Assembly (NCBI GenBank): GCA_947476875.1
Contig: CANJSG010000001.1
Coordinates: forward strand, 25,336-89,335
DNA length: 64,000 nt
Reading direction: 5' to 3'
Origin: Verrucomicrobiota bacterium
Lineage (GTDB): Bacteria > Verrucomicrobiota > Verrucomicrobiia > Limisphaerales > CANJSG01
Part shown: piece by piece, positions 12,816-28,718 of the stretch
Position numbering within the stretch: the stretch's first letter is position 1
Layout of the letters: the number at the start of each line of letters is the position of its first letter
Translations under genes and position numbers: made by a program
The notes under the pieces: model-generated
Databases searched by the model: none
Seen by the model: the letters and a program-made list of their open reading frames with translations, nothing else
What the model was told of the DNA's origin: nothing

Positions 12816-12836
12816 GGCTTGGAGGTAAATGGCTGA

Positions 12837-14339
12837 TCAACGCCCGCGGAATCCGCCGCCGCCAAACGGGCTACCGATGCCGCCGGGCGCCCCGCCGGCT
12901 GGGCGGGCTGCGGTTGCCGTCTCGGTGACGACCAAGCCGGTGATGACTTCATCGCCTTCCTTGAGCCCGTCTAGGACCTCCACGTTCGTGGCGTCCTCGA
13001 GGCCGGTCTTGATGGTGATCCTGCGAGCCATTTGCATGGGTTTCCCGTCGGGGGAGTTGGTCTTCACCAGCAGATACAGGCTCTGGGAAACCGGAGCGTC
13101 TCCGACACGAAGGCGAGGAACCGCCGCGGCGGCACCACCCGCTCCGCCGCCGCGGCCCCCGCCAAATCCGCCACCGGCACCGGCTGCCCCGCCGCCTTCG
13201 GCGAAGCGGGCGCGCATCTGGGCCATCCGGTCTTCCATAACTTTCTTCTGCTCGGGCGTGAGAGTGGCCATCCATTTCTCGCGTTCGCCAGACTCGGGGC
13301 GTCGGCCTTGCGCGGTCCAGGGCGGTATGGGCATGCCGTCGGGTCCGAGGGCGACGGGTGCGTTCGTGGCGGCCGCATCGGCGATCGCCGTGGCGTTGGT
13401 TCCGGATTCGGACTTGATGATCGATGCTTCGGGTGGCTTGACGCGGAAGGCCGTCTTAGGCACGCGGAGCACGGCTTTCTTTTGGCCGGTGATGATCGTC
13501 GCGGTGGTCGTCATGCCCGGGCGGAGCTTCAGGTCGTCGTTGGCGACGTCGATGATGGCCGAATAGTTCACCACGTTCTGGTTGGTGATCGCGGCGAAGC
13601 GCACCTGGCGGATGATTCCCTTGAAAGGCCGGCCAGGGAAGGCGTCGACCGTGAACTCCACGTTCAATCCCTCGGTCACGTTGCCGACATCGGCCTCGGA
13701 GACCATGGCGTCGATCTGCATCTTGCGAAGGTCGTTGGCGATGGTCATCAGCGTCGGGGTGTTGAGGCTGGCGGCGACGGTCTGGCCGATGTCGACGTTG
13801 CGGCTGATTACCACGCCGCTGATAGGGGCGTAGATCGTGGCGCGGGAAAGATCGACTTCGGCCGTGTCCACGGCGGCTTCACGGGTCAGGACCTGGGCCT
13901 TGGCCTGCTGGCGCTGGACACGGGTCTGGTCGTATTCGGACTGGGCGATGAGCCTGTTCTTCAGGAGTTCCTCGGAGCGTTTGAAGTTGAGTTCCGCCAG
14001 CTCGAGGCTGGCTTGGGAGTTGGCAAGATCGGCCTTGGCCGACTTCATCCGCGTCATGTAGGTGCCGGAATCGATCTCGGCGAGGAGCTGGCCTTCCTTG
14101 ACGGTGGAATTGAAGTCGACGGTGAGATTGGTGATCTGCCCGGAGATCTGGCTGCCGACGGCGACGGTCTTGATGGGGGACAACTGGCCGTTGGCGCTGA
14201 CCGACTGGGTGACGTCGCCCTTGGCCACGGCGGCGGAGCGGAACTCCACCGGCCCCGAGGTCGGGTTTTTGCTGCTCCAATACTTCCACCCGCCGAATCC
14301 GGCTGCGGCGAGCACGATCACGAGGACGATCCACTTCAT
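12837..14339 (-). CDS. Efflux periplasmic adaptor (HlyD/MacA-type membrane fusion protein) with a Gly-rich insertion
   Basis: N-terminal TM (MKWIVLVIVLAAAGFGGW), lipoyl/coiled-coil hairpin segments (SQISGQITNL, IYAPISGVVISRNV), a Gly/Ala-rich stretch (GGGAAGAGGGFGGGRGGGAGGAAAA) and a Gly-rich C-terminal tail. First gene of the ABC efflux operon. Confidence 0.88.
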   Translation of the reverse strand: MKWIVLVIVLAAAGFGGWKYWSSKNPTSGPVEFRSAAVAKGDVTQSVSANGQLSPIKTVAVGSQISGQITNLTVDFNSTVKEGQLLAEIDSGTYMTRMKSAKADLANSQASLELAELNFKRSEELLKNRLIAQSEYDQTRVQRQQAKAQVLTREAAVDTAEVDLSRATIYAPISGVVISRNVDIGQTVAASLNTPTLMTIANDLRKMQIDAMVSEADVGNVTEGLNVEFTVDAFPGRPFKGIIRQVRFAAITNQNVVNYSAIIDVANDDLKLRPGMTTTATIITGQKKAVLRVPKTAFRVKPPEASIIKSESGTNATAIADAAATNAPVALGPDGMPIPPWTAQGRRPESGEREKWMATLTPEQKKVMEDRMAQMRARFAEGGGAAGAGGGFGGGRGGGAGGAAAAVPRLRVGDAPVSQSLYLLVKTNSPDGKPMQMARRITIKTGLEDATNVEVLDGLKEGDEVITGLVVTETATAARPAGGAPGGIGSPFGGGGFRGR

Positions 14340-14416
14340 AAATCTTGGGGGCGGGTCTGAAAACGGTTCCGGGACTGGTTTCTAGAAAGTGGGCCGGCAG
14401 GAGCCCACTTGCAAGC

Positions 14417-14443
14417 GGGCCGGTGCCGGAACGGCACCGGCCC
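14417..14443 (-). terminator. GC-rich hairpin downstream of the 14465-15157 gene (possible terminator, no clear U-tract)
   Basis: gggccggtgccg-gaa-cggcaccggccc forms a 12-bp perfect stem 22 nt after the stop codon. A second, weaker hairpin (gtgggc..gcccac followed by ttt on the reverse strand) follows. Confidence 0.35.
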
Positions 14444-14464
14444 ACCTGTTAAACGGTCAATCGA

Positions 14465-15157
14465 TCAGAGCTTGGACTTGGCTTCGGCCGGGACTTCGAC
14501 CTTGGCGGTGCCGACGTCCTTGATCTCGACGGTGGTGGTGCGGGCCATCGTGCGGTCCTCGCCGTCCTGGGTGGTGATGGTCGCCTTGGACTTCAGCTCA
14601 TACTTGGCGATGACGCCGTCCTTTACCCAGAATACGGCCGAGGCAGACGCGTTTTTGGGGGCGGGCGCACCCTGACGACGGCCGCGCATCGAGGCGAGTT
14701 CGGCCGCGCCTTCCGGGCTGATTTCAACGGTGAACTTGCCGTCGGCGGCCTTCACTTCCTTGGCCTTGGCGAGGATGTTGGTCGCCTCACCACCGGCGCT
14801 GCGCTGGCTCGCGAAAAAGCGGCCAAAGTTCGGTCCACCCCCGGTGTTGGCCTCGAGTTCGGCAGACGACTTCCAGCCGTCGGGCGTCTTCACGGCGACC
14901 TTCGAATCCTTCATGACCACTTCGATCTCGTTGTCCTGCATTTTGGTCGAGATATGGGTGAAACCACCCTTCTCGGTCTTGCCGTTGACCGGCGCCGGGG
15001 TCCACTGGCCACCTTCGATCTCGGTGGTGGAGGTCCAAGCATAGCTGGACTTGTCCTGAAGTTTGGCGGCGGCGGCGGCAAGGTCGGCCTTGGGCTCAGC
15101 GGCAAGGGCGGTGAGCGAGGTGGCGGCGAGGAGGGACAGGTAGCTGAGTGCTTTCAT
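14465..15157 (-). CDS. Secreted hypothetical protein (230 aa)
   Basis: The internal ATG at 15157 gives the signal peptide MKALSYLSLLAATSLTALAAEP. The mature part is a Lys/Glu/Thr-rich soluble beta-type sequence. The longer track ORF (to 15265) has an Arg/Pro-rich, non-protein-like extension. Confidence 0.6.
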   Translation of the reverse strand: MKALSYLSLLAATSLTALAAEPKADLAAAAAKLQDKSSYAWTSTTEIEGGQWTPAPVNGKTEKGGFTHISTKMQDNEIEVVMKDSKVAVKTPDGWKSSAELEANTGGGPNFGRFFASQRSAGGEATNILAKAKEVKAADGKFTVEISPEGAAELASMRGRRQGAPAPKNASASAVFWVKDGVIAKYELKSKATITTQDGEDRTMARTTTVEIKDVGTAKVEVPAEAKSKL

Positions 15158-15388
15158 GGGGCTGGTTCTGGGTTGGTGGTTGGTCCGAGAGGAAGACCGG
15201 CGACCTCTCAGGTGGTTACACCGAATCCTGGGCGGATTCCCGGGCAAAGTCGAACACTTGGTCATTGGACACGCCGCCGGTCCGGCCTATCAAGGCACAT
15301 CATCCGTCCACCACCATCCCGAGGAGCCGTTCGGACGGGGGTTGCGGGCCTGACTAGGCTCGGAGAACGGGACTCCGGAGCATCCGCC

Positions 15389-15413
15389 GGAACATTTCGT
15401 CTAAGGATCCGTC
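15389..15413 (+). promoter_or_regulatory. ECF-type promoter candidate (GGAAC-N16-CGTC), probably autoregulatory
   Basis: ggaac (15389-15393), a 16-nt spacer, then cgtc (15410-15413), about 100 nt upstream of the ECF sigma start codon at 15514. Confidence 0.5.
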
Positions 15414-15513
15414 CGTCCGTGTGTCGTAGAGGGTGAGATGCCCCCGCTGAACGGACCAAAGAAACCGGACCGGCGCCGAACGCGATGATGCGACGCCGCC
15501 CGAGAACAAGCCG

Positions 15514-16083
15514 ATGACCGTGGCCAGTCCAGAATCCGCCAGCACCAGTCAGCCGCCCCGATCCGAGACGATCGAGGAGCTGTTCGGCGCGCTGGAATCA
15601 CCGCTCCTCAGCTACGCGCTGCGGCTCGTCGGCGACCGCGCCCAGGCGGAGGACATCGTCCAGGACGCGTTCATGAAACTTCACGCCCAGTTCGCCGAGG
15701 TCCGCGAGCCCCGCCGATGGCTTTACCGCATCGTGCACAACCTCGCCCTCAACCATCGCCGCCAATCCGGCAAGCTCGTAGCCCTGCCGGAATCGGGCGC
15801 GGCGAATCCGAATGGAACCGCCTCCGACCGCGAGACCGCCGACACCGAACCCCTGCCCGACGAACAGATCATCCGTTGGGAAGGCATCGGGCTCGTCCGC
15901 CTCAGCCTCTCGGCGCTGGACGAACGCAGCCGCGAAGTCGTCCGGCTGAAGTTCGACGACGACCTTTCCTACCAGCAGATCGCCGGACGAACCGGCCTGA
16001 GCAACGGCCACGTCGGCTACCTCCTCCACCACGCGCTCAAGACCCTCGCGGCCGAGCTCAACCGCGCGGGACTCCTGCCATGA
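15514..16083 (+). CDS. ECF (extracytoplasmic function) sigma-70 family sigma factor
   Basis: Region 2 (AEDIVQDAFMKLHAQF...WLYRIVHNLALNHRR) and region 4 HTH (LSYQQIAGRTGLSNGHVGYLLHHALKTL). 189 aa. Confidence 0.92.
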   Translation: MTVASPESASTSQPPRSETIEELFGALESPLLSYALRLVGDRAQAEDIVQDAFMKLHAQFAEVREPRRWLYRIVHNLALNHRRQSGKLVALPESGAANPNGTASDRETADTEPLPDEQIIRWEGIGLVRLSLSALDERSREVVRLKFDDDLSYQQIAGRTGLSNGHVGYLLHHALKTLAAELNRAGLLP

Positions 16084-19000
16084 ACCCATTCTCCAACGAT
16101 CCTCCCGGCCAGGACGATCCCGAGCTCCGCATCACGGCATTGCTCCTGGGCGAACTCTCCAAGACGGCCGCAGCCGACCTGCGCCAGGAAATCGCCGCCA
16201 GCGCCGCCCTGCAAAAACTCCACGACGAACTCGCCCGCACCATCGGCCTCGTCCGTGAAGCCCGCGGAGCGGCGGATGAAAAGACGGGGCCCACGGCGGA
16301 ACCGCTCACCCTGTCGTTCGATAAACGAAACCGTCTCTTTGCGGCGTTCAAAACGGTTCCCTTGCCGGTGGCCGAGAAGAAACGACGGCTGGTCGTTCCG
16401 TGGCGGGAAGCCGCGTCCGTGGCGGCCATGCTGGCCGTGCTCGCGGGTGTCACGACGCTGGTGTTGAACCGGGGCCTCCAGCCGGAAGACACGCTCTCGG
16501 ACCGGATGGCCCTCTTCTTCGGGCGTGAAAAATCCTACAAGACACCCGGCGGCGTGACTCCGTTGCCGATGGGGGAGGTGGTCACGTCGGCGGAGTCCAA
16601 GGAGATCCGCCTTTTAGCGTATGACGCGGCGAGTTCGCCGCTGGATGGACGGGCCGCCGGGGTCGAGGCCAAGTCCTCTTCGGCCCGTGGATCCGATCCG
16701 GCGTCTGCCCAGCCGCCCATGCTCAATCCGGCTGGCGAACCCGTTGTGAATGGCCGGCTCGGCGTCGGGCAGAATGGTGTCGAGCTGGAATCCGAAGCGG
16801 TGGATCCGCAATACAGGACCCGCTATGGCATCGCGCTGAACCTGCCTCTCAAAGAACCCGCCCCGGCCGCCTACGCCGACGCGGGAAACGCTTCCGGCAC
16901 ACCCGCGCTGACGGTTGCCGATTCCAGGCCGCGTCAGGAACCACAAGCGACTCGTTTTGCCATCGCTCTTCCTTCCAGCGCGGAACCAGCCAAGGCGGGC
17001 GCCGATGACTTCGCTGCCCTGAGCCGTGGTGAACGCACCGCGCTCGGGGTCGACACTCGCTGGGAGAGCAGTTCCACGGCCGCCTTCGACAAAGCTCCGG
17101 TGGCAGAAGCCTTCTTCCGGCAGACGAGTCAGCCTGAAAGCCTGGCGCGAACCGAACTTTCCCGGCGTGCCGACGCTGCCGGTGCAAAGGCCGGTTCTAC
17201 TTGGGAGTTCCGAAACTCCGGCCGCACCGAGGTCGCCCTTCAGAGCGAGAGCAAGTTCGTTGCGGCGGGTGATCTTTTGGTCGATGCCGACCGATACGCG
17301 GCCGCCGTTCCGCCGCCGGCCACGTCTCCGGCTTCGGAAGCACCCGAAGGCATGAAGGCGAATTTCGGCATCACCCTGGCAACCGCCCAGCCCTCCGGGG
17401 GCGGACTCGCAGGCGGCGGTGGGGGCGGCGGTGGACACGGACTTGAAGGCCGCGCGTATTCACGCGAGGCAGTGGATGGGTTGACGACCAAACTCGCACC
17501 GCCGTTGGTGGTCTCGGGACCGGCTCCCGCACAGGCGGCCAAGGGCAGGGCCTGGTTTGAGCAGAAGCCCGCCGCAGAAAGGGAGAAGCAGGTCTTGGCA
17601 TTCCAGGCCGTCGATCAGAAGGACTCTTTTGGGACCGAGTTGAAGTCCCGATTGGCCACCGCAGCCGGCGCCTCTGCGCCCGTGTTGACGGACGGCGGTG
17701 TGGCCTCCGCCGCCGAGTTCAACCAGCCGGCTCCGGCCCCCATGGCCGCGTATCGGGTTCCGGTTGCGGCCCGGAGTTACTTCTTCGATGCGAGCGATCC
17801 GGCGAAAGGCGCTAAGCCCGTGGACAAGGAACTCGCGGACCGACCCATACCGGCCCGTTCAGGTGGATTGTCGGACAATGCCGAATCCCGCGTGCGGCAG
17901 CTGAAGGAAGTGGAAGCGGTGAGCTTGGTTGCCCAAAGCGGCCCGGAAGAACTCTACGCCAAGGCCCAACCCGCCGCGCCGGCCCCCACCCTCGACTTGC
18001 CCACGATCAACGGCCGCGAACTGGGGCGGAAAGAGCTCAGGGCTGCAGGGGCCAACGGGGACTTTATCCTTTCGAAGTCGAAGAATCAGGTCGGAGGCAA
18101 CGTTGGGGATCCGGAAGGGATCGGAGCTCTCGAGTCCGCCGCCAAGTCGGACGCGAAGGCGGAGTCTTTGAAGCGACTCAGTAAGCTTTCGGTGGACGAA
18201 CGGATTCAGGAAACCGACGGAGAACGCTCCGTCCTCAAGCGCTCGATCGTTTTGCCCGCATCGGGAACGGGCGACTCGGGCGTCATCGTCGCCGGGAAGC
18301 CGGCCACGGCGGCGGCCTTGGACACGGCGGGCGCGGTGCGCAAGAAGATCGCGGCCGGAGGCCAAAAGCTGGCCGCGCTCAAACAGGTCGAGGAACGCGC
18401 CAAGGTCTCCAAACTCGAGGATGCGGCCACTCCCCGCACCCCCGCGCCGAACGCCGCCGTTCCCCAGCCCGAGGTGGCCACGGCGGAGAACGCTTTCTCC
18501 ACGTTCTCGCTCAACGTCGCCGACGTCAGCTTCAAGCTCGCCGCCGCCAGCCTGGAAAAGGGCGCGATGCCGGACGTGTCGACCATCCGCAGCGAGGAGT
18601 TCATCAACGCCTTCGACTATCGCGACCCCGAACCGCCGGCGGGCGTTCCCATCGCCTTCGCCACCGAACGCGCGCGGTATCCGTTCGCGCATGACCTCGA
18701 CCTCGTCCGCTTCTCTGTGAAGACGGCCGCCGTCGGACGCCAGCCTGGCAAGCCCTTCAACATCGTCCTCGCGATCGACAACTCCGGATCGATGGAACGC
18801 GCCGACCGCGTGCGCATCCTCCAGGAATGCATCCGCACCCTCGGTTCCCAGCTCCTGCCCGAGGACCGCATCAGCGTCGTGTCGTTCGCCCGGACGGCCC
18901 GTCTCTGGGTCGATGGCGTCCCGGTGGTCGAGGCCGGTGACCTCGCCGAACGCATCGGCCGTTTGACGCCCGAAGGCGGCACCAATCTCGAGGAGGCGAT

Positions 19001-19796
19001 GAACCTCGCCTACAAGACCGCGCTGCGGCACTTCGTTTCCGGCGGCGTGAACCGCGTCGTCCTCATCACCGACGGCGCGGCCAACCTCGGCGAAGTCGAA
19101 CCCGATTCCCTCAAGCAGAAGGTCGAGGCGCAGCGCAAACAGGGCATCGCCCTCGACTGTTTCGGCATCGGCTGGGACGGCTTCAACGACGACCTGCTCG
19201 AAGTCTTGTCGCGCAACGGCGACGGCCGCTACGGCTTCATCAACACGCCCGAAGCGGCCGCGACGGAGTTTGCCGGGCAGCTCGCCGGCGCGCTCAAGGT
19301 GGCCGCGTCCGACGTGAAGGTGCAGGTGGAATGGAATCCGCGCCGCGTCACCTCGTATCGCCAAATCGGCTACGCCAAACACCAGCTCAAGAAGGAGCAG
19401 TTCCGCGACAACACCGTCGACGCCGCCGAGATCGGCGCGGCCGAGGCCGGCAACGCGCTCTACACCGTGCAGGTGAATCCGGCCGGGGAAGGCCCGCTCG
19501 CCACCGTGCGCGTGCGTTTCCGCGTGCCGAACACGTCCGACTACCGCGAGCACGAATGGATCGTGCCCTACGCGACGCCCGCGCCCGCGTTGGATCAGGC
19601 GAGTTCCACGCTGCGTCTCGCGGCGACGGCGTCCGCCTTCAGCGAATGGCTGGTGGCCAGTCCGTTCGCGGCCGAGGTCACGCCCGACAAGCTGCTCGGC
19701 TATCTGCGCGGCATTCCCGAGATGCGTCCGGCCGATCCGCGGCCCAAGCAGCTCGAAACGATGATCCGCCAGGCGAAGACGATTTCGGGGCAGTGA
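16080..19796 (+). CDS. Membrane-spanning anti-sigma factor with C-terminal von Willebrand factor A domain (YfbK/DUF3520-like)
   Basis: The ATG at 16080 overlaps the sigma stop (ATGA). N-terminus PELRITALLLGELS, one TM helix (VAAMLAVLAGVTTLVL), and about 650 aa of Ala/Pro/Gly/Ser-rich linker. Then FSTFSLNVADVSF..EEFINAFDY and a vWA domain with MIDAS start VLAIDNSGSM and TPEGGTN. The track ORF start at 15717 is an out-of-context upstream extension that overlaps the sigma gene. Confidence 0.85.
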   Translation: MNPFSNDPPGQDDPELRITALLLGELSKTAAADLRQEIAASAALQKLHDELARTIGLVREARGAADEKTGPTAEPLTLSFDKRNRLFAAFKTVPLPVAEKKRRLVVPWREAASVAAMLAVLAGVTTLVLNRGLQPEDTLSDRMALFFGREKSYKTPGGVTPLPMGEVVTSAESKEIRLLAYDAASSPLDGRAAGVEAKSSSARGSDPASAQPPMLNPAGEPVVNGRLGVGQNGVELESEAVDPQYRTRYGIALNLPLKEPAPAAYADAGNASGTPALTVADSRPRQEPQATRFAIALPSSAEPAKAGADDFAALSRGERTALGVDTRWESSSTAAFDKAPVAEAFFRQTSQPESLARTELSRRADAAGAKAGSTWEFRNSGRTEVALQSESKFVAAGDLLVDADRYAAAVPPPATSPASEAPEGMKANFGITLATAQPSGGGLAGGGGGGGGHGLEGRAYSREAVDGLTTKLAPPLVVSGPAPAQAAKGRAWFEQKPAAEREKQVLAFQAVDQKDSFGTELKSRLATAAGASAPVLTDGGVASAAEFNQPAPAPMAAYRVPVAARSYFFDASDPAKGAKPVDKELADRPIPARSGGLSDNAESRVRQLKEVEAVSLVAQSGPEELYAKAQPAAPAPTLDLPTINGRELGRKELRAAGANGDFILSKSKNQVGGNVGDPEGIGALESAAKSDAKAESLKRLSKLSVDERIQETDGERSVLKRSIVLPASGTGDSGVIVAGKPATAAALDTAGAVRKKIAAGGQKLAALKQVEERAKVSKLEDAATPRTPAPNAAVPQPEVATAENAFSTFSLNVADVSFKLAAASLEKGAMPDVSTIRSEEFINAFDYRDPEPPAGVPIAFATERARYPFAHDLDLVRFSVKTAAVGRQPGKPFNIVLAIDNSGSMERADRVRILQECIRTLGSQLLPEDRISVVSFARTARLWVDGVPVVEAGDLAERIGRLTPEGGTNLEEAMNLAYKTALRHFVSGGVNRVVLITDGAANLGEVEPDSLKQKVEAQRKQGIALDCFGIGWDGFNDDLLEVLSRNGDGRYGFINTPEAAATEFAGQLAGALKVAASDVKVQVEWNPRRVTSYRQIGYAKHQLKKEQFRDNTVDAAEIGAAEAGNALYTVQVNPAGEGPLATVRVRFRVPNTSDYREHEWIVPYATPAPALDQASSTLRLAATASAFSEWLVASPFAAEVTPDKLLGYLRGIPEMRPADPRPKQLETMIRQAKTISGQ

Positions 19797-19798
19797 GG

Positions 19799-20077
19799 TT
19801 CATCCACGAAGGACACGAAGAAGCACGAAGCAGGAACCGCAGATGAGGCAGAGAATACAGAACGCAGACGACCTTGAATTGCTGGTAGGGCGAAGGCTCC
19901 CGACGAGCCGCCCTGCTGTTTTCAGAACTACAAGCACGCCACGGCGGCCGCGTCATCGGGCATCCAAGCGGGTTGGCTTCCCGCGAGAATCGTTCTGGTC
20001 AAATGTCGGTTTCGAGGCGGCTCGGCGGGAGCCTTCACCCTACCAGTCTTCCGCCCTTGGTGTCCCTTCGTGGATGA
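19799..20077. repeat. Composite palindromic repeat element, copy A
   Basis: Outer arms are tcatccacgaaggacac (19800-19816) and gtgtcccttcgtggatga (20060-20077). Inner arms are ctggtagggcgaaggctcccgacgagccgcc (19882-19912) and ggcggctcggcgggagccttcaccctaccag (20016-20046), complementary at 29 of 31 positions. Confidence 0.8.
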
Positions 20078-20104
20078 TCCCATTCCCTGCTCCGACTCCA
20101 GAGG

Positions 20105-20228
20105 AGCCGTCTGTTTATAGAATCCCGGCGACCCACAAAACGAAGCTCCGGAGGAGCGACCTGTTTGGGCCGCTCCTGCGGAGCTTGGGGAACAATCGTG
20201 AGGCCGGGCGTTCTATAAACAGGCCGGC
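20105..20228. repeat. Nested imperfect palindrome (second repeat type)
   Basis: Outer arms are ctgtttatagaa (20111-20122) and ttctataaacag (20211-20222). Inner arms are aagctccggaggagcg (20143-20158) and cgctcctgcggagctt (20171-20186), with 1 mismatch. Confidence 0.7.
20189..20212 (+). promoter_or_regulatory. Second ECF-like promoter motif (GGAAC-N15-CGTT) upstream of the giant ORF
   Basis: ggaac (20189-20193), a 15-nt spacer, then cgtt (20209-20212), 205 nt upstream of the ATG at 20417. The spacer is 1 nt shorter than at the sigma gene and the site lies inside the nested palindrome, so support is weak. Confidence 0.3.
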
Positions 20229-20416
20229 CCTCCGGGCCTGGGGAGCGACGTCGCGGACGGGGGCGTTTGCCGATGGGATGGCCTCAGTCGGCTGGCCGCA
20301 ACGCGGATGGACCTCCTGGCCGGGCGAGGACGCCCGGCCTACGGAGCCAGACACTTCTCTTACAAGCCCCAGACACATTCGCCGCGCGGCTGCGGCACAC
20401 TGCTTTAGCAATTTCC

Positions 20417-23400
20417 ATGAAACGCATCCTTACTCGGCTGGTCTTCGGAACGCTCGTTCTCGCCGTCTCGCTGCTCAGCGCGTCGGCCGCCGACACCAAG
20501 GTCGAAGCCAAGAGCATCTCGATCAACGGCGGTGCCGAAGACGGCAAGGCCAAGCTCACCATCGAGGCCAATCTGCTCGGCCACGCGGCCTCCGAGCGCG
20601 TGATCCATTCCACCACGATCCAGCACGCGCTCCAGATCACGCGCGACAAACACGCCCACACCGTCGTGGCCACGTTTGACGTTCTCCAGGGAGATCCGCG
20701 CGAACTCACGCTCGTCCTCGGCGGCGAAGGAGACATCCGCAGCGTGACTGGATCCGCTCTGCAGGACTGGGGCGTCCGGCAGGAAACAAACGGCGTGCGC
20801 ACGCTCGTCCTCCGGCCCAAGCGGGCTGATAAGCCGATCACGCAGCTCGCGGTCACGATCACCGCCGAACGCGATCTTCGGACGTGGGCCAACCCGGTGA
20901 AGCCCCTCACCTTCTCGTCGCCGCAGTCCGCCTTGGCGCAGGGGTTCCTCAAGGTCGATGTCGCGGCCGACCTGGCGGCCGAACCGATCAACCCGACCGG
21001 CCTTGTGCCGATCGACGCCAAGTTCCTTCCCGAAACCCTCCGGGGCACGAACAAGGCCGATGATCTGGAGCCGCTCGCCTTCCGCCTGCAGGGCGCGAGC
21101 TACAGCATCCCGCTGAACGTCACCACGACCGATCCCGAGGCGCGGAGCGCGGTGGTGCGCGACTTCAAGCTGGAGGGCGATCTTGCCGGAGGCGCCGCGT
21201 CGTTCATTTATTCCGCGACGGTCCGCGTGAACAACCCGCGCGGCGCCTCGTTCACCCTGCTGGCCGGTGCGGTGGCGCTGAACGAACTCGATCGCCACCC
21301 CGATTGGCGGCTGCGGTTCGTGAACGGAAACTTCATGACCGTCTTCGACAAACCCGGCGACTACGCGGTGCGCCTGCGGTTCCACGCGGCGGTGAAACCG
21401 GCGAATGGCTGGAACAGCGTCGACTTCCGCGTGGCTTCCTCGCCGCTCCAGCCGGTCACGTTGCGCGGGCTCGCGCCGGACACGCAGTTCGCCTTCGGCA
21501 ACGCCGCGCGGCCGGAACGTTCCGGCGCCGAGTTCCGCAGCTTCCTCCCGCCCGACGGCACGGTGCGTTTGGCTTGGAAGGAATCGCGGCCCGAAGCGGA
21601 GGGAAAACTTTTCTACGCGGCCGAAATGCTGGCGCAGGTGAGCGTCGGCGCCGGGCTTGTCCGCCAGAATGCGCTCATCGAAGGCAAGGTCATGCAGGGC
21701 GAGCTTAGCCGCATCGTCCTCATGCTTTCCGGCGCGGGCAACGTCACGGCCGTGCAGGGCCCGAATGTTCTTTCGTGGAAGGTCGAGCCGGTGCCGCAGA
21801 CGCAGGACCGCATGCTGGTCGTGCAGTTCAACCAGCCGCAGAAGGACGCGTTCTCGCTCCAGGTGCAGATGCAGACCGAGCTGGGCGCGTTGCCGCAGTC
21901 GGTCGAGACGATGCGCCTCAAACCCGAAGGCGCGACGCGTTTCGCCGGACACATCCGCGTCGTCAACGAAGGCGCAGTCAGACTCGAGGTCGTGAAGTCC
22001 ACCGGCCTGTCGCAGATCTCGCCCGAGCAGTTTCCCGAAACGGCGGCGACCAAGGTTTGGCTGGGCGCGAAGTCCGGCCAGCGGTTCGCGTTCCGTTTCT
22101 CCAGCACCGATTTCGCGCTGCGGATCCAGGCGGACAATGTCCTGCCTGAGCTGAGCGTGTCACAGCTCCTTGCGTATCATCTCGGCGAGACCGAGCTGGC
22201 GATCGACGGGGAGTTCGAGTTGGACATCCGTGAGGCGCCGCTGCGCGAAGTGCTGCTGCGGATCCCGAAGGGTTTCGCCATCGCGCGGGTCACCGCCTCC
22301 GGCCTGAGCGACTACTTCGTCCGCGAACCGGCCGACCAGCCCGATGCCGAACTGCGCCTCGTCTACGGCTCTCCGATCGCGGATCGCCAGGTCATCCAAC
22401 TGCGCCTGGAACGCAACGGCGCGCTCGGCCAGACGAACTGGTCCCCGCCACGCGTCGAAGTGCTGAAGGCGAAGTCCACGCGCGGCCACATCGCCGTATC
22501 GGCGGACGCCGGTTTCCGCCTGACACCCGATCGCACGGTGGGTCTGAGCGACATCGCCACGGCGTTCTTCCCGAAGAAGGTCGCGGGCATCCAGGCGGCG
22601 TTCCGGCTGGCGGAACCGAACTGGGAAGCGGCCCTGCGCGTCGAGCGTCTCCCGCAGTCGATCCAGGCGGACGTGTTCCACCTCTTCTCCATCGGCGAAG
22701 GCATCGCCTATGGCAGCAGCACGATGAACTTCTTCATTTCGGGCGCGCCCGTGTCGCAGTTTCTCGTCTCGCTGTCCGACGAATACTTCAACGTCGAGTT
22801 CACCGGGAAGGACCTCCGGAGCAACTGGCAGAAGACCACCAACGGCTACCTCGTCACGATGAACACGCCCGTCTCCGGCGCCTACACCCTGCTCGCGAGC
22901 TACGAGCGTCCGTTCAAGGCCCAGGGCGACACGTTGACCTTCACCGGTGCGCGGCCCGTCGATGCCCAGAACGAACAGGGCCACACGCTCGTGGTCAGCG
23001 CGTATCAGTTCCAGGTGAAGCCCTCCAACGTGTCGTCCAACCTGCTCGAACTGGAGACCGCGGAAGTGCCCGCCGAATACCGCCTGTTCTTCGACGCGCC
23101 GATCCTCAAGGCCTACCGCTACGCCTCGCGGCCGTTCAACCTGCAGCTCACGTTGAGTCCGTTGGTCCAGGGCGAGACCCTCAGCCTGGTCGTCGACCGC
23201 GCCGCGTTGACCACCCGCATCTCGAAGGATGGCGACGTCATCACCGACGCGCGTTATTTCGTGAAGAACCGCGGCAATCCGCATCTCAAGCTGACCCTTC
23301 CCGCCGACACGAAGCTTTGGTCGGTCACGGTCAACGGCGCGACCGTCGTGCCGGTCAAGGACGGTGCGTCCGACCTCATTCCGCTGCCGCAGCGCGGGGA

Positions 23401-26400
23401 TCCGAACACCGTGCAGACTCTGGATCTCAAGCTCGCGACCCGTTCCAAGAATCCGGCCCGGGTGACCGCCGCCGCGCCCATCGTCTCGGCGCCGGTGCTG
23501 CTGGCCGATTGGAACCTGGAACCCGATGCCGGACAGAAGCTCGTCTATCGCAGCGGCTCGCTCGCGCCGGTCGGCGGCTTGCCGGATGTCTCGGGCTTCG
23601 CCGCGTTGGCGCGGATCTTCAGCCACTCGGGCGATGCCTGGCTGAAGCTGGGTCTTGCCGGCGGGGTTCTTCTCTTTGGGTTGTGGGCCTGGAAATGGGC
23701 GTCGGGGAACGGCTCCCATCGCTTCGGTGTCCGGCATTTGGGTGGTGCCGTCGTCGGGGCGGTCGGAGTTCTCCTCGCGGCCGTGGTCTTGGTCGACCTC
23801 GCCGAGAGGGCTTCCAGCCAGCGCATCACGATGTCCGACTCCATCACGCTCCTCGCGCCCGTGCAGCAGGGCGGAAGCGCGTTGACCATCGAGGTCGCCA
23901 ACGTGGCCAACGACGCCAGCGGTGACTCGTTCATCGGCCGTGCGTGGCCGGTGGTCCTCGCTTTGTTCGTCTGGGGTTACGCGTTCCTTGGCGGCCGCGA
24001 TGACTCCAAGCGGCTGCTCGTGATGTTGGGATGGACGTGCATGGCGTGGGCCGTCCTGCGCCTGTCGAACAGCTCGGGAACGTTCTTCCTTCTTGTCGCC
24101 CTTTTCCTGCTCATCCACCTGGTCGTGCCGGCCGGCCGGGCCCTCTTCAACGTGCCCCCGGCGCCGCCGCGCAACGACGATCCGGCTTCGTCCGCCACGG
24201 CCACCATAGTCAGCCTGCTCCTGCTGCTAGGCGTGACGCCGCTGGCCGGATCGGCCCAGGCCGCGCCGGCCGGTAGGGCGAAGGCTCCCGCCGAGCCGCC
24301 TAAAAGCCTCCGTCAAGTTGACGGTTCCAGCGGCACCGGTTCGGCTTCCCTCGATGGGCCCGAAGGTTCTGCCAACACCACAAGGCGGCTCGGCGGGAGC
24401 CTTCGCCCTACCGGCGTTTCGTCGATCCGCAGCCGTGAAGGCGCCATCGCCGACTCGGTGATCCAGGAAGTGCGGATCGACGAGAAGTTCGCCCTTGTCA
24501 CCGCGAAAATCCGGTGGACGGCCGGGCAAGGCCAGATGCTGCCCATCCTGCTCGACCCCGGGGTGCTCACGAAGATCGTGTTCCCGTCGAACTCCGTGCG
24601 CCATGTCCAGACGATCCTCAGCGGCAAACGCACCCACCAGCTTGTTGCCCTTGCGGACGGCCCATCCGAGATCGAATTGCAGTATCAGCTCCAGGTCGGT
24701 CAACGCGCCGGAGAGAGCGGATTCGAGTTGGCGACCCCGCATGGCCTGGTCAACCGGATCAGCGTCACGTTGCCGGAGATGGACGTCGATGTGGGCGCGA
24801 CCAACGCCGTGTCCGTCGTGCGCAGCACCGGCGGAACGAACACCACCGTCGCCACGCTCGTGCTCGAGCCGGTGACCCGTTCATGGATCTCCTGGAAGCC
24901 CCGGAGCCGCGACGTGCGCAAGGAGAAGCCCGTGTTCTACGCCGAAGTCTTCCAGCTCTATGCACCCGTCGGCGGTGTGATCGAAGGCGTGCATCAGGTC
25001 CAGATCCGTCCCGCCCAAGGCGAACTCGGTGAACTTGTTTTCGACGTGCCCATGGGCGCGACCATCACGGACGTCGTGACCCCGGTGCCGCCAGAGTCCG
25101 CCAACCGGCTGGGCTTCATCCCGAACATCGTTTCGCTTTGGCGCTTCGATCCCGATACGCGGAAACTGCGCGTCACGCTCAGCCCGCAGCAGTCGAAGCC
25201 GTTCACGCTGGTCGTCCGCTCACAGGTCGCGACGGGGCCGCTTCCCTTCGAGCAGAAGGCCGGACTGCTCGGCGTCGTGGGTGCGGCCGGCCAACTGGGA
25301 TCCGTCGGCGTCGCCACGGGCTCCGAAGTGCAGCTCGACAATGTGACGACCGAATCGCTCTCCGCGATCAACCTCGAGGATTTCCCGGTCTCCGTGCTCC
25401 AGCCGCTGCGCAGCCAGATCGCCGGACTCACGCTGCGCCGCGCGTTCCGCCACGCGGACGCCAAGGGCACCTTGACCGTGAAGGCCTCGGCCGTGGAACC
25501 CGACGTGCGTGTCGAAACCCAAGAGACCCTTTCGCTCGGCGACGACCGGTCGCTGCTCGCGGTCAACGCTGCGTTGACCATCACCCGCGCCGGCATCTTC
25601 CGCGTCAGCTTCGCCCTGCCGGCCGGACTCGACGTCGAGTCGATCAGCGGCGGCGCGCTCAGCCATTGGACGGAGCTGAAGTCCGCCGAAGGAAGGATCA
25701 TCACGCTTCATCTCAAGGGCCGCACCGAAGGCCAGACGCAGTTCGCGGTGAACCTTGCCGGACCCGGCACGAAGTCCGCGAAGAACGTGGCGGTGCCCCG
25801 GCTGACCTTTCGCGAAGCCGGCAAACAACGCGGCCAACTCGTCATCGTTCCGGAACAGGGGATGCGCCTGCAGGTGGCCACGCGCGACGGTGTCACCCAG
25901 CTTGACCCGCAGAAGTCCGGCATCCGGCAGAAGGGTGTGCTCGCCTTCCGCCTGCTCCAGCCCGACTGGGCGCTCGCGCTCGACGTCGAACAGGTCGACG
26001 CCTGGGTGCAGGTCACCGGCCTACAGCACCTGACCGTCACCGAAGCCCAGCTCAAGGCCACGGCGAACCTCCAGTATCAGATCGAAAACACCGGCTTGAA
26101 GGCCCTCCACATCCGCGTCCCGGCCAATGCCGAAGGCGTGCGGTTCCGGGGCGAACAAGTCGCGGACTTCCTGCCCGTCGCCGGCTCGGTCACCAACGGC
26201 CTCCAGACCTGGGAAGTGAAGCTGCATCGCCGCATCATCGGGAAGTATCTGCTCCAGGCCACCTGGCAGACGCCGCTCGCCGAAGCCTCGACCAACGCGC
26301 TGGCCATCGGCATCCAGGCCGATGAGGCCAACCTCCAACGCGGCTTCGTGACCGTGCAGTCCAGCGGACGCCTGCAGCTCCGCATCGGTGCGCTGCCCGC

Positions 26401-27646
26401 GGCTTTGCAGCCGACCGAATGGCAGGGCATCCCGCGCACGTTGTTGCAGGACATCCCCGACACCGCGGCGAACTTCACCTATCGCCTGGTCGAACCCGCC
26501 TTCCAGTTTGCGATGCAGTTGGACCGCCGTGAAGCCACCAAACTTCTCCCGGCCCGCGTCAGTTCCGTGAAACTCACCAGCGTCGTCTCCGATGACGGCG
26601 TCATGCTCACCCAGGTCCGTCTCGACCTCGTGCCCGGCGACAAGCGCCTGCTCAACCTCACGCTTCCGGCCGAGGCGCGCTTCTGGTTCGCCTTCGTCAA
26701 CCAGAACGGCGTCTGGCCTTGGCGCGACCAGGACAAAATCCTGATCCCGCTCGAACAGCAGTCGCGCGCCGACAAACCCACGACCGTCGAATTCTTCTAC
26801 TCCAGCCGCATCGGCAAAGGCGGCTCGGGTTCGGTGAACCTCGCGTTGCTCGGGCCGAAGTTCGATCTGCCGCTCGAAAACATCTCGTGGCAGGTCTACC
26901 TGAACGACCGTTGGAAAGTGACCAAGTGGGCCGGCTCGCTCCAGCTGCAGGACAATGTCCGCGCCGTCGCGCCCGTGTCCGTCGACGTGCAGTCTTATCT
27001 CGCGAACGAGGTGAGCCTGAACAAGGAGAAGACCAAGGCCGCCGAACAGATGCTGACGCTCGGCAACACGCTCCTTGAACGCGGCGACGCCGGCCAGGCG
27101 CGCTGGGCCTTCCAGAACGCCTTCGGACTGAGCCAGCACGACAACGCCTTCAACGAGGACGCCCGCGTCCAGCTGCACAACCTGAAGCTCCAGCAGGCCT
27201 TGATCGGCTTGAACGTGCGGCAATCCGCCGCCGGCGGTGAAGCCGCTTCGACAAAAGGGAACCTCCAGCAGCTCCGCAGCCAGAACACCGTGGCCTACAC
27301 CCAGCAGCAGGCGAAGCAGCTCATCGACGCCAACACGGCCGACGACAACGCCTCGCTCATGAAACTCGCCGAACGCATCATCCAGCAGCAGGACGCCGCC
27401 GTGCCCGCGCCCGCCGCGATCCGCGCTGCGATCCCGCAACAGGGCCGGCTTCTGACCTTCAGCCGCACCGTGCAGGTCGACACCTCGGCCGACCTCGACA
27501 TCCGCCTGACCGCATCGGTCGAGAATGAGGCCTCCTTCGGCACCCGGTTGGGCATCCTGTTCACCGTCTTCGCCGGGTTTGGATTGATGGTGTGGCTTGG
27601 TGGAAAACTTCGTCGAGACAACGCTGAACCGGCCTTGGGCAACTAG
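20417..27646 (+). CDS. Giant (2,409-aa) secreted/membrane-anchored protein built from two paralogous halves; no recognisable named domain
   Basis: The ATG at 20417 gives the signal peptide MKRILTRLVFGTLVLAVSLLSASA. The frame is uninterrupted to 27646. Each half has three (R/Q)G-x-h-x-V...P modules and an LxLTLPA..W..VN...LIPL motif. There is a cluster of about 5 TM helices at about 23630-24260, and a final TM helix LGILFTVFAGFGLMVWLGG near the C-terminus. This may have been two genes originally (see findings). Confidence 0.75.
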   Translation: MKRILTRLVFGTLVLAVSLLSASAADTKVEAKSISINGGAEDGKAKLTIEANLLGHAASERVIHSTTIQHALQITRDKHAHTVVATFDVLQGDPRELTLVLGGEGDIRSVTGSALQDWGVRQETNGVRTLVLRPKRADKPITQLAVTITAERDLRTWANPVKPLTFSSPQSALAQGFLKVDVAADLAAEPINPTGLVPIDAKFLPETLRGTNKADDLEPLAFRLQGASYSIPLNVTTTDPEARSAVVRDFKLEGDLAGGAASFIYSATVRVNNPRGASFTLLAGAVALNELDRHPDWRLRFVNGNFMTVFDKPGDYAVRLRFHAAVKPANGWNSVDFRVASSPLQPVTLRGLAPDTQFAFGNAARPERSGAEFRSFLPPDGTVRLAWKESRPEAEGKLFYAAEMLAQVSVGAGLVRQNALIEGKVMQGELSRIVLMLSGAGNVTAVQGPNVLSWKVEPVPQTQDRMLVVQFNQPQKDAFSLQVQMQTELGALPQSVETMRLKPEGATRFAGHIRVVNEGAVRLEVVKSTGLSQISPEQFPETAATKVWLGAKSGQRFAFRFSSTDFALRIQADNVLPELSVSQLLAYHLGETELAIDGEFELDIREAPLREVLLRIPKGFAIARVTASGLSDYFVREPADQPDAELRLVYGSPIADRQVIQLRLERNGALGQTNWSPPRVEVLKAKSTRGHIAVSADAGFRLTPDRTVGLSDIATAFFPKKVAGIQAAFRLAEPNWEAALRVERLPQSIQADVFHLFSIGEGIAYGSSTMNFFISGAPVSQFLVSLSDEYFNVEFTGKDLRSNWQKTTNGYLVTMNTPVSGAYTLLASYERPFKAQGDTLTFTGARPVDAQNEQGHTLVVSAYQFQVKPSNVSSNLLELETAEVPAEYRLFFDAPILKAYRYASRPFNLQLTLSPLVQGETLSLVVDRAALTTRISKDGDVITDARYFVKNRGNPHLKLTLPADTKLWSVTVNGATVVPVKDGASDLIPLPQRGDPNTVQTLDLKLATRSKNPARVTAAAPIVSAPVLLADWNLEPDAGQKLVYRSGSLAPVGGLPDVSGFAALARIFSHSGDAWLKLGLAGGVLLFGLWAWKWASGNGSHRFGVRHLGGAVVGAVGVLLAAVVLVDLAERASSQRITMSDSITLLAPVQQGGSALTIEVANVANDASGDSFIGRAWPVVLALFVWGYAFLGGRDDSKRLLVMLGWTCMAWAVLRLSNSSGTFFLLVALFLLIHLVVPAGRALFNVPPAPPRNDDPASSATATIVSLLLLLGVTPLAGSAQAAPAGRAKAPAEPPKSLRQVDGSSGTGSASLDGPEGSANTTRRLGGSLRPTGVSSIRSREGAIADSVIQEVRIDEKFALVTAKIRWTAGQGQMLPILLDPGVLTKIVFPSNSVRHVQTILSGKRTHQLVALADGPSEIELQYQLQVGQRAGESGFELATPHGLVNRISVTLPEMDVDVGATNAVSVVRSTGGTNTTVATLVLEPVTRSWISWKPRSRDVRKEKPVFYAEVFQLYAPVGGVIEGVHQVQIRPAQGELGELVFDVPMGATITDVVTPVPPESANRLGFIPNIVSLWRFDPDTRKLRVTLSPQQSKPFTLVVRSQVATGPLPFEQKAGLLGVVGAAGQLGSVGVATGSEVQLDNVTTESLSAINLEDFPVSVLQPLRSQIAGLTLRRAFRHADAKGTLTVKASAVEPDVRVETQETLSLGDDRSLLAVNAALTITRAGIFRVSFALPAGLDVESISGGALSHWTELKSAEGRIITLHLKGRTEGQTQFAVNLAGPGTKSAKNVAVPRLTFREAGKQRGQLVIVPEQGMRLQVATRDGVTQLDPQKSGIRQKGVLAFRLLQPDWALALDVEQVDAWVQVTGLQHLTVTEAQLKATANLQYQIENTGLKALHIRVPANAEGVRFRGEQVADFLPVAGSVTNGLQTWEVKLHRRIIGKYLLQATWQTPLAEASTNALAIGIQADEANLQRGFVTVQSSGRLQLRIGALPAALQPTEWQGIPRTLLQDIPDTAANFTYRLVEPAFQFAMQLDRREATKLLPARVSSVKLTSVVSDDGVMLTQVRLDLVPGDKRLLNLTLPAEARFWFAFVNQNGVWPWRDQDKILIPLEQQSRADKPTTVEFFYSSRIGKGGSGSVNLALLGPKFDLPLENISWQVYLNDRWKVTKWAGSLQLQDNVRAVAPVSVDVQSYLANEVSLNKEKTKAAEQMLTLGNTLLERGDAGQARWAFQNAFGLSQHDNAFNEDARVQLHNLKLQQALIGLNVRQSAAGGEAASTKGNLQQLRSQNTVAYTQQQAKQLIDANTADDNASLMKLAERIIQQQDAAVPAPAAIRAAIPQQGRLLTFSRTVQVDTSADLDIRLTASVENEASFGTRLGILFTVFAGFGLMVWLGGKLRRDNAEPALGN
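24269..24415. repeat. Inverted-repeat element copy B, inserted in frame inside the giant ORF
   Basis: Left arm ccggtagggcgaaggctcccgccgagccgcc (24270-24300) and right arm ggcggctcggcgggagccttcgccctaccgg (24384-24414) are perfect reverse complements, 32 bp if the flanking g/c pair is included. The total is 147 bp, or 49 codons, with no stop in the host frame. Confidence 0.85.
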
Positions 27647-27709
27647 GGCGTGTCTGCAGGCCGTGCACGCATCCCGAACGTGCCCGTGACGAGGGATGAA
27701 GTCGGGGGA

Positions 27710-27870
27710 GGCAGGGCGCAGGCTCCCGCCAAGCCGCCTCGAAACTTTCTCGAACCAAGGTCCGCCACGGCGGCCATGCAGGACAACCGCCGCCGCTGAT
27801 GGGCTCCCCGGAATAGCCTGCCCGGTCTTCGCAAGCCACAAGGCGGCTCGGCCGGAGCCGTCGCCCTACC
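27710..27870. repeat. Inverted-repeat element copy C (diverged arms)
   Basis: ggcagggcgcaggctcccgccaagccgcc (27710-27738) pairs with aggcggctcggccggagccgtcgccctacc (27841-27870), about 25 of 30 positions complementary. Lies immediately downstream of the giant ORF stop. Confidence 0.7.
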
Positions 27871-27938
27871 TGGGCGCGCACGCCCGGCCGCGCGATCCCG
27901 CTCTTCACTTCGGCCCGGCTGGTCCGCAGTCTTCGCCC

Positions 27939-28718
27939 GTGGAACTTGTCTGGCTTTGTGGATTCGCCTTTCTCGCCGGGCTGGTGGATTCGCTGGTCGG
28001 TGGCGGCGGGTTGATCCAGCTCCCGGCGTTGTTCGTCCTGCTGCCCAAGGATGTCGCCACGCAGGTCGCAACGGTCTTCGGCACGAACAAACTCTCCTCC
28101 CTCTGCGGCACGACGATCGCCGTGGTGCAGTATGCGCGACGGGTTCCAATCCGGTGGGCGACCATCCTGCCGGCCACGATTGCGGCGTTTATCTTTTCGT
28201 TCCTTGGCGCGCGGGCGGTGACCGGCTTCAAGACAGACGCCTTCAAACCGGTCATCCTCGTCCTGCTCATGGCGGTGGCGCTCTACACCTACTGGAACAA
28301 GAACCTCGGCGGGGAACATCGGCCGAAGTTCTCCGCGAACCGCGAACTGCTCTGGGGTGTGCTGACGGGAATGGTGATCGGATTTTATGACGGGTTCTTC
28401 GGGCCGGGCACGGGCAGTTTCCTGATCTTTATCTTCATCGGCTGGTTCGGCTTGGATTTCCTCAACGCGTCGGCCAGCGCCAAGGTGGTCAACTTCGCGA
28501 CCAACCTTTCCGCCGTGCTCTACTTCGCCGCGACGGACCACATCCTCTACGCCTACGCCCTGCCGATGGGCGCGTGCAACGTGCTCGGATCGCTCGTCGG
28601 AACGCGTCTCGCGATCCTCAAGGGGAATCGCTTTATCCGCTGGTTCTTCCTCTTCGTCGTGGGCGCGATGATCATGCGGTTCGGTTGGGAAGTGCTTTCC
28701 GGCGGGGTGGGGAAATGA
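27939..28718 (+). CDS. TSUP (TauE/SafE, DUF81) family anion exporter
   Basis: A GTG start at 27939 gives VELVWLCGFAFLAGLVDSLVGGGGLIQLPALF, the canonical TSUP N-terminus. About 259 aa with about 8 TM helices. The upstream part of the track ORF (from 27696) overlaps repeat copy C and is not protein-like. Confidence 0.8.
   Translation: MELVWLCGFAFLAGLVDSLVGGGGLIQLPALFVLLPKDVATQVATVFGTNKLSSLCGTTIAVVQYARRVPIRWATILPATIAAFIFSFLGARAVTGFKTDAFKPVILVLLMAVALYTYWNKNLGGEHRPKFSANRELLWGVLTGMVIGFYDGFFGPGTGSFLIFIFIGWFGLDFLNASASAKVVNFATNLSAVLYFAATDHILYAYALPMGACNVLGSLVGTRLAILKGNRFIRWFFLFVVGAMIMRFGWEVLSGGVGK

Follow-up and report, generated by a model that had tools for sequence, protein, structure and literature searches.

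A conserved gene unit of Verrucomicrobiota comprising an ECF sigma factor, a vWA-headed anti-sigma factor and a giant two-halved membrane protein

Within a 64,000-nucleotide stretch of a Verrucomicrobiota genome (GenBank assembly GCA_947476875.1, contig CANJSG010000001.1, positions 25,336 to 89,335; hereafter the window, with position 1 as its first letter), three forward-strand genes encode a sigma factor of the extracytoplasmic function (ECF) type, a single-pass anti-sigma factor with a periplasmic von Willebrand factor A (vWA) head, and a giant membrane protein of 2,409 amino acids (aa). These three open reading frames (ORFs), in all of which third-position GC is high as in real genes, are genuine and form a conserved unit of Verrucomicrobiota and part of Kiritimatiellia. 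We consider it probable (roughly 0.6) that they constitute one autoregulated ECF sigma/anti-sigma operon with the giant protein as its conserved cargo. Sigma/anti-sigma pairs of this kind are a well understood type of switch, and the new part is their conserved partner, a family of giant proteins (~2,100–2,450 aa) tied to the switch from Verrucomicrobiota into Kiritimatiellia. The locus is laid out as follows.

15514..16083, + strand: ECF (group IV) sigma factor, 189 aa, with Sigma70_r2, r4_2 and r4 domains and a TIGR02937 match
16080..19796, + strand: single-pass anti-sigma factor, 1,238 aa, overlapping the sigma gene by ATGA
19797..20416, no strand: unusually long intergenic gap of 620 bp, inflated by two inverted-repeat insertions
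20417..27646, + strand: giant membrane protein, 2,409 aa, with its stop codon at 27644–27646

A first-pass annotation, made from the DNA letters alone, had reported the ATGA overlap between the first two ORFs and, beyond the 620-bp gap, a 2,409-aa ORF with a signal peptide; both descriptions were borne out, and every peptide string it quoted was found in the translations.

Linkage of the three genes was assessed by tblastn on 82 related loci, using the window sigma factor, the N-terminus and head of the anti-sigma factor, and the ends of the giant protein as queries. Sigma, anti-sigma and giant genes were found in the same order and on the same strand in 46/46 loci with enough upstream DNA, and all 46 loci with a sigma match also carried the other two. 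The trio was likewise kept in four of seven distant relatives (~25% identical), including Kiritimatiellia. This clearly demonstrates that the three-gene unit is real and strongly conserved over deep divergence. The idea of a self-contained unit had been open to the objection that homologues of the giant gene might be scattered and unlinked to such pairs, and at the 46 loci they are not. Near full-length homologues of the giant protein (~2,300–2,450 aa, 57–94% identical) come almost exclusively from Verrucomicrobiota metagenome-assembled genomes (MAGs), where all are named hypothetical, while remoter members, at ~25% identity, include Kiritimatiellia. An exhaustive search with half 1 of the protein gave 2,972 representative clusters (50% identity) at E≤1e-3, most of them 2,100–2,400 aa in length with two matched stretches, and when one genome was taken per species, 374 stretches encoded a relative.

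By its domain content the first gene product is a standard group IV (ECF) sigma factor, as had been proposed: it scores 79.9 bits against the TIGR02937 sigma70-ECF model (cut-off 42.9) and matches PF04542 together with PF08281/PF04545 in Pfam, with no match for region 3. Every match to NCBIfam subfamily models fell under its cut-off. Orthologues in related loci are 49–85% identical.

The anti-sigma factor consists of the following parts.

16080..16394, + strand: cytoplasmic anti-sigma domain (aa 1–105) with the pattern E.RLTALLLGEL...LH.RL...LVREA, zinc ligands lost
16407..16478, + strand: single transmembrane (TM) helix (aa 110–133) by hydropathy scan, its position conserved in the orthologue alignment
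16479..18473, + strand: Ala/Pro/Gly/Ser-rich periplasmic linker (aa 134–798) seen in the translation, of hypervariable length
18474..19700, + strand: periplasmic sensor head, with Pfam matches above cut-offs
18474..18710, + strand: vWF_A domain (aa 799–877), 50.4 bits against a Pfam cut-off of 25
18759..19256, + strand: VWA domain (aa 894–1059), 49.5 bits against a Pfam cut-off of 23.8
18777..18791, + strand: DNSGS of the metal-ion-dependent adhesion site (MIDAS), within VWA
19290..19700, + strand: YfbK_C/DUF3520 domain (aa 1071–1207), 100.2 bits against a Pfam cut-off of 25

The head (PF12450, PF00092 and PF12034) is thus encoded in a gene that is ATGA-coupled to the sigma gene, and the layout given in the first-pass annotation, with one hydrophobic helix and an intact MIDAS, agrees with what we found. 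The MIDAS residues D-S-S-T-D (D-x-S-x-S...T...D) are invariant in 56/56 orthologues, and identity of the head across loci is 61–93% (56–93% when cut partial hits are counted), so that the head surpasses the giant protein's N-terminal part in conservation. Whole anti-sigma factors range from 797 to 1,717 aa among orthologues (median 1,206) with both ends conserved, and the linker is therefore a variable tether. The cytoplasmic N-terminus of the window copy gave no match to PF13490 (zf-HC2) even at E≤1; it aligns without breaks to those of its orthologues, 28 of 32 of which, as aligned, do match PF13490, with a best E of 6e-13. The Kiritimatiellia copy retains the zinc-binding H-x3-C-x2-C (HLDKCGDC) where the window has IAASAALQKL, and these ligands are lost in the Verrucomicrobial copies. 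By orthology, the 1,238-aa protein is a single-pass anti-sigma factor with what appears to be a degenerate zf-HC2-type cytoplasmic domain. As a separate observation, the linkers of some orthologues carry PATR autotransporter-associated repeats or a T2SSG pseudopilin-like segment (L001 6016–9495, L002 6376–9771 and L088 2660–6331), at a place where the window linker has low-complexity sequence only.

The giant protein is built of two halves, and its features are these.

20417..20494, + strand: signal peptide (aa 1–26), MKRILTRLVFGTLVLAVSLLSASA followed by AD, by hydropathy scan; N-terminus conserved in the homologue alignment
20495..23638, + strand: half 1 periplasmic beta-sandwich array (aa 27–1074), AlphaFold model
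23639..24262, + strand: six-helix membrane bundle closing half 1 (aa 1075–1282), hydropathy and AlphaFold
24443..26935, + strand: half 2 periplasmic beta-sandwich array (aa 1343–2173), AlphaFold model, paralogous to half 1
26987..27400, + strand: periplasmic helical bundle (aa 2191–2328) with the AFNEDARVQLHNLK motif, model residues 909–1046
27536..27610, + strand: C-terminal TM anchor (aa 2374–2398), then a short cytoplasmic tail, hydropathy and model

AlphaFold models of the two halves, each built on 70 sequences, had a mean predicted local distance difference test score (pLDDT) of 85.8 for aa 200–1290 and 85.6 for aa 1283–2409. In the models half 1 forms five all-beta domains and half 2 a string of all-beta sandwich domains; the C-terminus of half 2 adds first a helical bundle, then a beta hairpin and finally a single membrane helix. 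Each half thus starts with a leader or signal helix, continues through ~1,050 aa of beta-sandwich domains and closes with a membrane anchor. The first-pass annotation had counted about five TM helices at the end of half 1; there are six, and since they lie mid-protein we infer that both beta-sandwich arrays face the periplasm. Most residues of the AFNEDARVQLHNLK motif, a stretch that is one of two peptide patterns chosen as the most conserved in the giant protein, are invariant in the homologue alignment, with N-E-D-A-R..Q conserved at 90% or more across 70 sequences.

That the halves are paralogues with the same architecture, as had been suggested, was confirmed by BLASTP, in which aa 385–1009 align with aa 1491–2131 at 24% identity (E 1e-32), and domain by domain by hhalign, which paired D2 with D2, D3 with D3, D4 with D4 and D5 with D5 at 95–97.5% probability. 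Among successive domains inside one half hhalign detected no similarity, and a division of each half into three homologous modules was rejected for want of profile-level homology by this method. The last of the six half-1 helices (LLLLLGVTPLAGSAQA) resembles a signal peptide, and looks like the mark of the junction to a formerly separate half-2 gene. Three distant representatives of 1,208–1,273 aa (P0198, P0251 and P0263) have the half-1 architecture only, with a leader, an ectodomain and a helix bundle. As such proteins end after the bundle, we take the giant protein to be a fusion of two once-separate paralogous genes, and their occurrence suggests that unfused two-gene versions exist.

Scans of the giant protein against Pfam and NCBIfam gave no match, in keeping with the earlier statement that it holds no named domain, and searching 15 distant relatives against Pfam at E≤1 yielded only scattered noise (TgpA_N in 2/15, TPR in 1/15). 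A profile of 37 full-length homologues had 0 matches among PDB sequences at E≤1. When both half models were compared with PDB structures using Foldseek, the best matches were integrin alpha legs, ribophorin I/Ost1 and PIG-T, with E-values of 1e-7 to 1e-10, and mu-homology domains also came up; TM-scores were 0.08–0.34 and identities 6–13%. The resemblance is that of generic beta-sandwiches at low TM-scores and no family was assigned from it. In the Pfam, NCBIfam and PDB-sequence searches the halves matched no characterised family.

Upstream of the sigma gene lies a conserved promoter-like element.

15376..15428, + strand: promoter-like element made of GGAGCA (15376–15381), N16, CGTCTAAGGA (15398–15407), N13, GTGTC (15421–15425) and then GTA

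Its conserved form among loci is GG(A/G)GCA-N16-TTTCGTCTAAGAAA-N13-GTGTC-TA, also written GGAGCA-N16-CGTCTAAGRA-N13-GTGTC. The core TCTAAG-N15-[G/T]TGTC was present in 35 sequences (34 related loci and the window), against at most 7/46 in shuffled controls, and its position is fixed at ~105–150 bp before the sigma alignment. A position weight matrix scan of 1.7 Mb placed the element almost exclusively upstream of sigma; it occurs once in the window and, across the syntenic loci scanned, never before the giant gene. The first-pass annotation had instead named GGAAC-N16-CGTC, before the sigma gene, and GGAAC-N15-CGTT, before the giant gene, as ECF-type promoters. Both strings exist (15389–15413 and 20189–20212), but the GGAAC-N15/16-CGTY pattern occurs 7 times in the window with 4.1 expected by chance, it is found in 0/45 of the upstream regions of orthologous sigma genes, and the copy before the giant gene sits inside a lineage-specific inverted-repeat insertion. 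We therefore ruled out both as chance matches, and the conserved element argues against a separate ECF promoter for the giant gene.

In about half of the loci the anti-sigma and giant genes lie <200 bp apart, and in most <450 bp. The window gap (19797–20416) holds no + strand terminator-like site and no sigma-70-like promoter, and in the same scan terminator-like sites were no commoner than in shuffled sequence. Because the element is found upstream of sigma only, the giant gene is probably co-transcribed with the sigma and anti-sigma genes, to judge from the DNA, and its sigma-dependent expression is plausible. With the short gaps added, a single operon under its own regulation accounts for these data most simply.

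On one MAG contig (L032 1–780) the 780 bp that precede the giant gene contain neither a sigma nor an anti-sigma gene, and there the same promoter-like element stands ~160 bp before the giant ATG. Beside the element on this contig is a short - strand ORF that by eye is IS200/REP-associated transposase-like.

We also scanned metagenome contigs for exact matches to CGTCTAAGAAA-N12-GTGTC and obtained at least 120 loci; the counts that follow are among the matches listed. An orthologous sigma gene lay just downstream in 77 of the 110 with enough downstream DNA, and 44/45 of the sigma-preceding matches with enough sequence continued into an anti-sigma gene. About 20 further matches share the flanking features of the element. 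Among the sites not followed by sigma, a downstream ORF could be called for 16 of the 23 with the best flanks, and a signal-peptide-like hydrophobic stretch opens 13 of these 16 ORFs. Two products recur. An alpha-2-macroglobulin homologue (MG2, bMG6, A2M_BRD) is encoded on four contigs and is 84–99% identical between them, with the flanking DNA diverged and the element retained; the contigs are L122 (610–4582), L128, L135 and L095, and a further one, L154, was associated by upstream DNA similarity only. Likewise, a ~150-aa secreted protein without a Pfam match, which starts MK..STPIGRDI.FPKDYDPQKA..., is encoded on four contigs (L106 445–1000, L120, L150 and L159). At one further site (L110) the element precedes a protein with a CarboxypepD_reg domain, and on L142 and L139 it precedes other signal-peptide proteins. 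As a lead, the sigma factor may also transcribe unlinked exported-protein genes in some genomes.

In the operon reading that we favour, the anti-sigma factor would hold sigma at the inner membrane in the resting state, and a periplasmic or envelope cue, read via the MIDAS site of the vWA head, would cause its release. Free sigma would then transcribe its own operon, and hence the giant gene, from the GGAGCA-N16-CGTCTAAGRA-N13-GTGTC element, and in at least some genomes also unlinked exported-protein genes, including that of the alpha-2-macroglobulin homologue. The giant protein would most likely be a non-enzymatic scaffold, anchored in the inner membrane and reaching across the periplasm, most likely with a role in envelope maintenance or defence. 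Several observations weigh against this account. The proposed transcript is assumed to cross the 620-bp gap of the window with its two hairpin-forming insertions; 9/46 loci, mostly Chthoniobacterales-like, are without a recognisable copy of the element, and which of its blocks correspond to the -35 and the -10 is ambiguous. Furthermore, a neighbouring sigma/anti-sigma pair is missing at 3/7 of the very distant giant homologues, so that the giant gene can exist without the pair nearby and the linkage claimed earlier, which stands at all 46 closer loci and in the other four distant relatives, fails in these three. The extra regulon candidates are on short metagenome contigs that are not tied to sigma-bearing genomes, and a paralogous sigma factor with the same specificity could be driving them. 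No catalytic motif or informative structural match was found that would give the giant protein a function.

The first-pass annotation had pictured a closed assembly feedback loop, in which a separate ECF promoter in the gap drives the giant gene and the vWA/MIDAS head binds or monitors its product. Strict linkage and high conservation of both head and giant protein, together with the invariant MIDAS site, speak for such contact; with its long flexible tether the head might be able to extend along a periplasm-spanning partner, and the integrin-leg-like beta-sandwiches of the latter offer a loose analogy. We nonetheless regard this loop as doubtful, given that its promoter string in the gap is at chance level, unconserved and inside a lineage-specific inverted repeat, that the conserved element precedes the giant gene in no syntenic locus, that distant giant homologues lack a neighbouring vWA anti-sigma factor, and that candidate additional targets speak against a purely self-contained circuit. 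Those same targets speak for the giant protein as a co-sensor, passing an envelope signal to the anti-sigma factor as an outer-membrane receptor does towards regulators of the FecR type while the output genes lie elsewhere, and its conserved six-helix bundle and near-invariant membrane-proximal helical motif could transmit such a signal. This is an unlikely arrangement in our estimation: no signal-transduction domain was detected in the giant protein with Pfam or NCBIfam, nor in its distant relatives with Pfam, and on L032 the element stands before the giant gene itself, which is expected of a target. The place of the gene downstream of the pair does not discriminate between co-sensor and cargo, being typical of targets and accessory factors alike.

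A longer shot than either is that the giant protein and the tethered vWA/MIDAS anti-sigma factor together form an integrin-like, periplasm-spanning sensor of envelope integrity that switches on a dedicated defence regulon including the alpha-2-macroglobulin homologue and further exported proteins; were it true, beta-sandwich 'legs' and a MIDAS head would monitor whether the envelope of the Planctomycetes–Verrucomicrobia–Chlamydiae (PVC) bacteria is mechanically or chemically intact. A membrane-anchored vWA protein is here encoded beside a large beta-sandwich-rich membrane protein, and from this resemblance to Bat operons one could suppose a system of the Bat/aerotolerance or MoxR-vWA type, with joint action of vWA proteins and a membrane protein like BatD. 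We give this very little credence. The likeness had been raised in the first-pass annotation, yet no MoxR ATPase, DUF58, BatA–E or TPR partner is encoded near the window unit or at any locus examined, Pfam searches at E≤1 turned up no BatD match in the giant protein or in 15 distant relatives, and Bat proteins lack the anti-sigma domain to which the vWA module is joined here.

The pairing of an ECF sigma factor with a vWA/DUF3520 anti-sigma factor is not new, having been catalogued as ECF289, where the anti-sigma factor encoded at +1 joins DUF3520 (YfbK_C) and a von Willebrand domain in one protein (Casas-Pastor et al. 2021, PMC7826278). We liken the present pair to ECF289 by the architecture of its anti-sigma factor, which is encoded directly downstream of sigma and has a periplasmic vWA plus DUF3520/YfbK_C module. 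It differs in that the main text of PMC7826278 names no conserved giant gene at +2, and in that the Verrucomicrobial anti-sigma factors have lost their zinc ligands and carry a linker of 200–1,100 aa. The same main text describes no ECF289 member as experimentally studied. That catalogue entry was the sole find of our literature search on vWA anti-sigma factors, YfbK and ECF sigma factors in Verrucomicrobia; the papers it returned included none assigning YfbK a function, and for the giant family it returned no paper, just as no Pfam or NCBIfam model matches that family.

Class I anti-sigma factors (zf-HC2/RsrA-ChrR-type, such as RseA and RsiW) similarly have an N-terminal anti-sigma domain, one TM helix and an extracytoplasmic sensor, and are encoded by genes translationally coupled to that of sigma. 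Here, however, a vWA/MIDAS module serves as the sensor and hangs on a very long tether, and the window copy is without H-x3-C-x2-C and on its own falls below the Pfam model. The head itself, vWF_A, VWA and YfbK_C with an intact MIDAS, resembles YfbK and inter-alpha-trypsin-inhibitor-like vWA proteins, from which it differs by its fusion to an anti-sigma domain and TM helix. For the giant protein, the likeness of both halves to integrin alpha legs, ribophorin I/Ost1 and PIG-T, their best Foldseek matches, is one of generic fold and not whole-architecture homology, with no PDB sequence match.

Bacterial alpha-2-macroglobulins are periplasmic, inner-membrane-anchored proteins with arrays of MG domains. 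They share with the giant protein a large periplasmic build of beta-sandwich domains, and in metagenome contigs the promoter-like element also stands before the gene of one such homologue; unlike them, the giant protein is without an MG2, bait-region or thioester match in Pfam, and its Foldseek probability to C5 and CD109 is only 0.35–0.44. With the unit, its likely promoter and a candidate exported-protein regulon defined, the locus offers an entry point into the envelope biology, so far little tested, of a phylum abundant in soil and freshwater, and a testable case of what an anti-sigma factor detects through a MIDAS-type sensor.

Some smaller features of the related loci and the neighbourhood may be added. 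A 162-aa gene with a hydrophobic N-terminal segment stands between the anti-sigma and giant genes in L001 (9508–9996) and L049 (9140–9409) only, and is absent from the window. Ten operon-bearing contigs (L008, L043, L069, L021, L038, L060, L027, L047, L052 and L063) have discordant MAG labels, namely Akkermansia muciniphila, Bifidobacteriaceae, Candidatus Acidoferrum, Candidatus Angelobacter and Limnocylindrales, and these are probably binning or taxonomy-label errors. Divergent from sigma on the - strand, window positions 10837–15265 encode a 266-aa protein that matches nothing in Pfam, along with a MacAB-type efflux set (HlyD-family adaptor, ABC ATPase and MacB/FtsX permease). The flanking genes (MacAB-like efflux, TauE, redoxin and dienelactone hydrolase) were considered as module members and rejected, because they are kept solely in the two closest relatives.

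The 620-bp gap is long because of two inverted-repeat insertions, one of which belongs to an element resembling repetitive extragenic palindromic sequences or miniature inverted-repeat transposable elements (REP/MITE-like) with further copies in the window. An Rfam scan of 15000–28000 gave no match.

19884..20044: REP/MITE-like element, intergenic copy
20098..20235: second inverted-repeat pair, 25-nt arms, 80% complementary, unrelated to the REP/MITE-like element
24272..24412, + strand: REP/MITE-like element in the giant ORF, an in-frame insertion of 47 codons within the linker that precedes half 2
27842..27870: REP/MITE-like solo arm
36635 to about 36780: REP/MITE-like element, further copy

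The REP/MITE-like element has 29–31-nt terminal inverted arms (GGTAGGGCGAAGGCTCCCG.CGAGCCGCC) around a variable core of 83–105 nt, and its arms match 6 times in the window with 0 expected. The second pair is unique in the window, encloses a GC-rich hairpin (20143–20186) and contains the GGAAC-N15-CGTT string discussed above. The copy in the giant ORF has the same 29-nt arms as the intergenic copy, translated as GRAKAPAEPP and RRLGGSLRPT; it falls in a disordered linker of low pLDDT and, of the relatives checked, is shared only with the closest (P0003, 85% identical).

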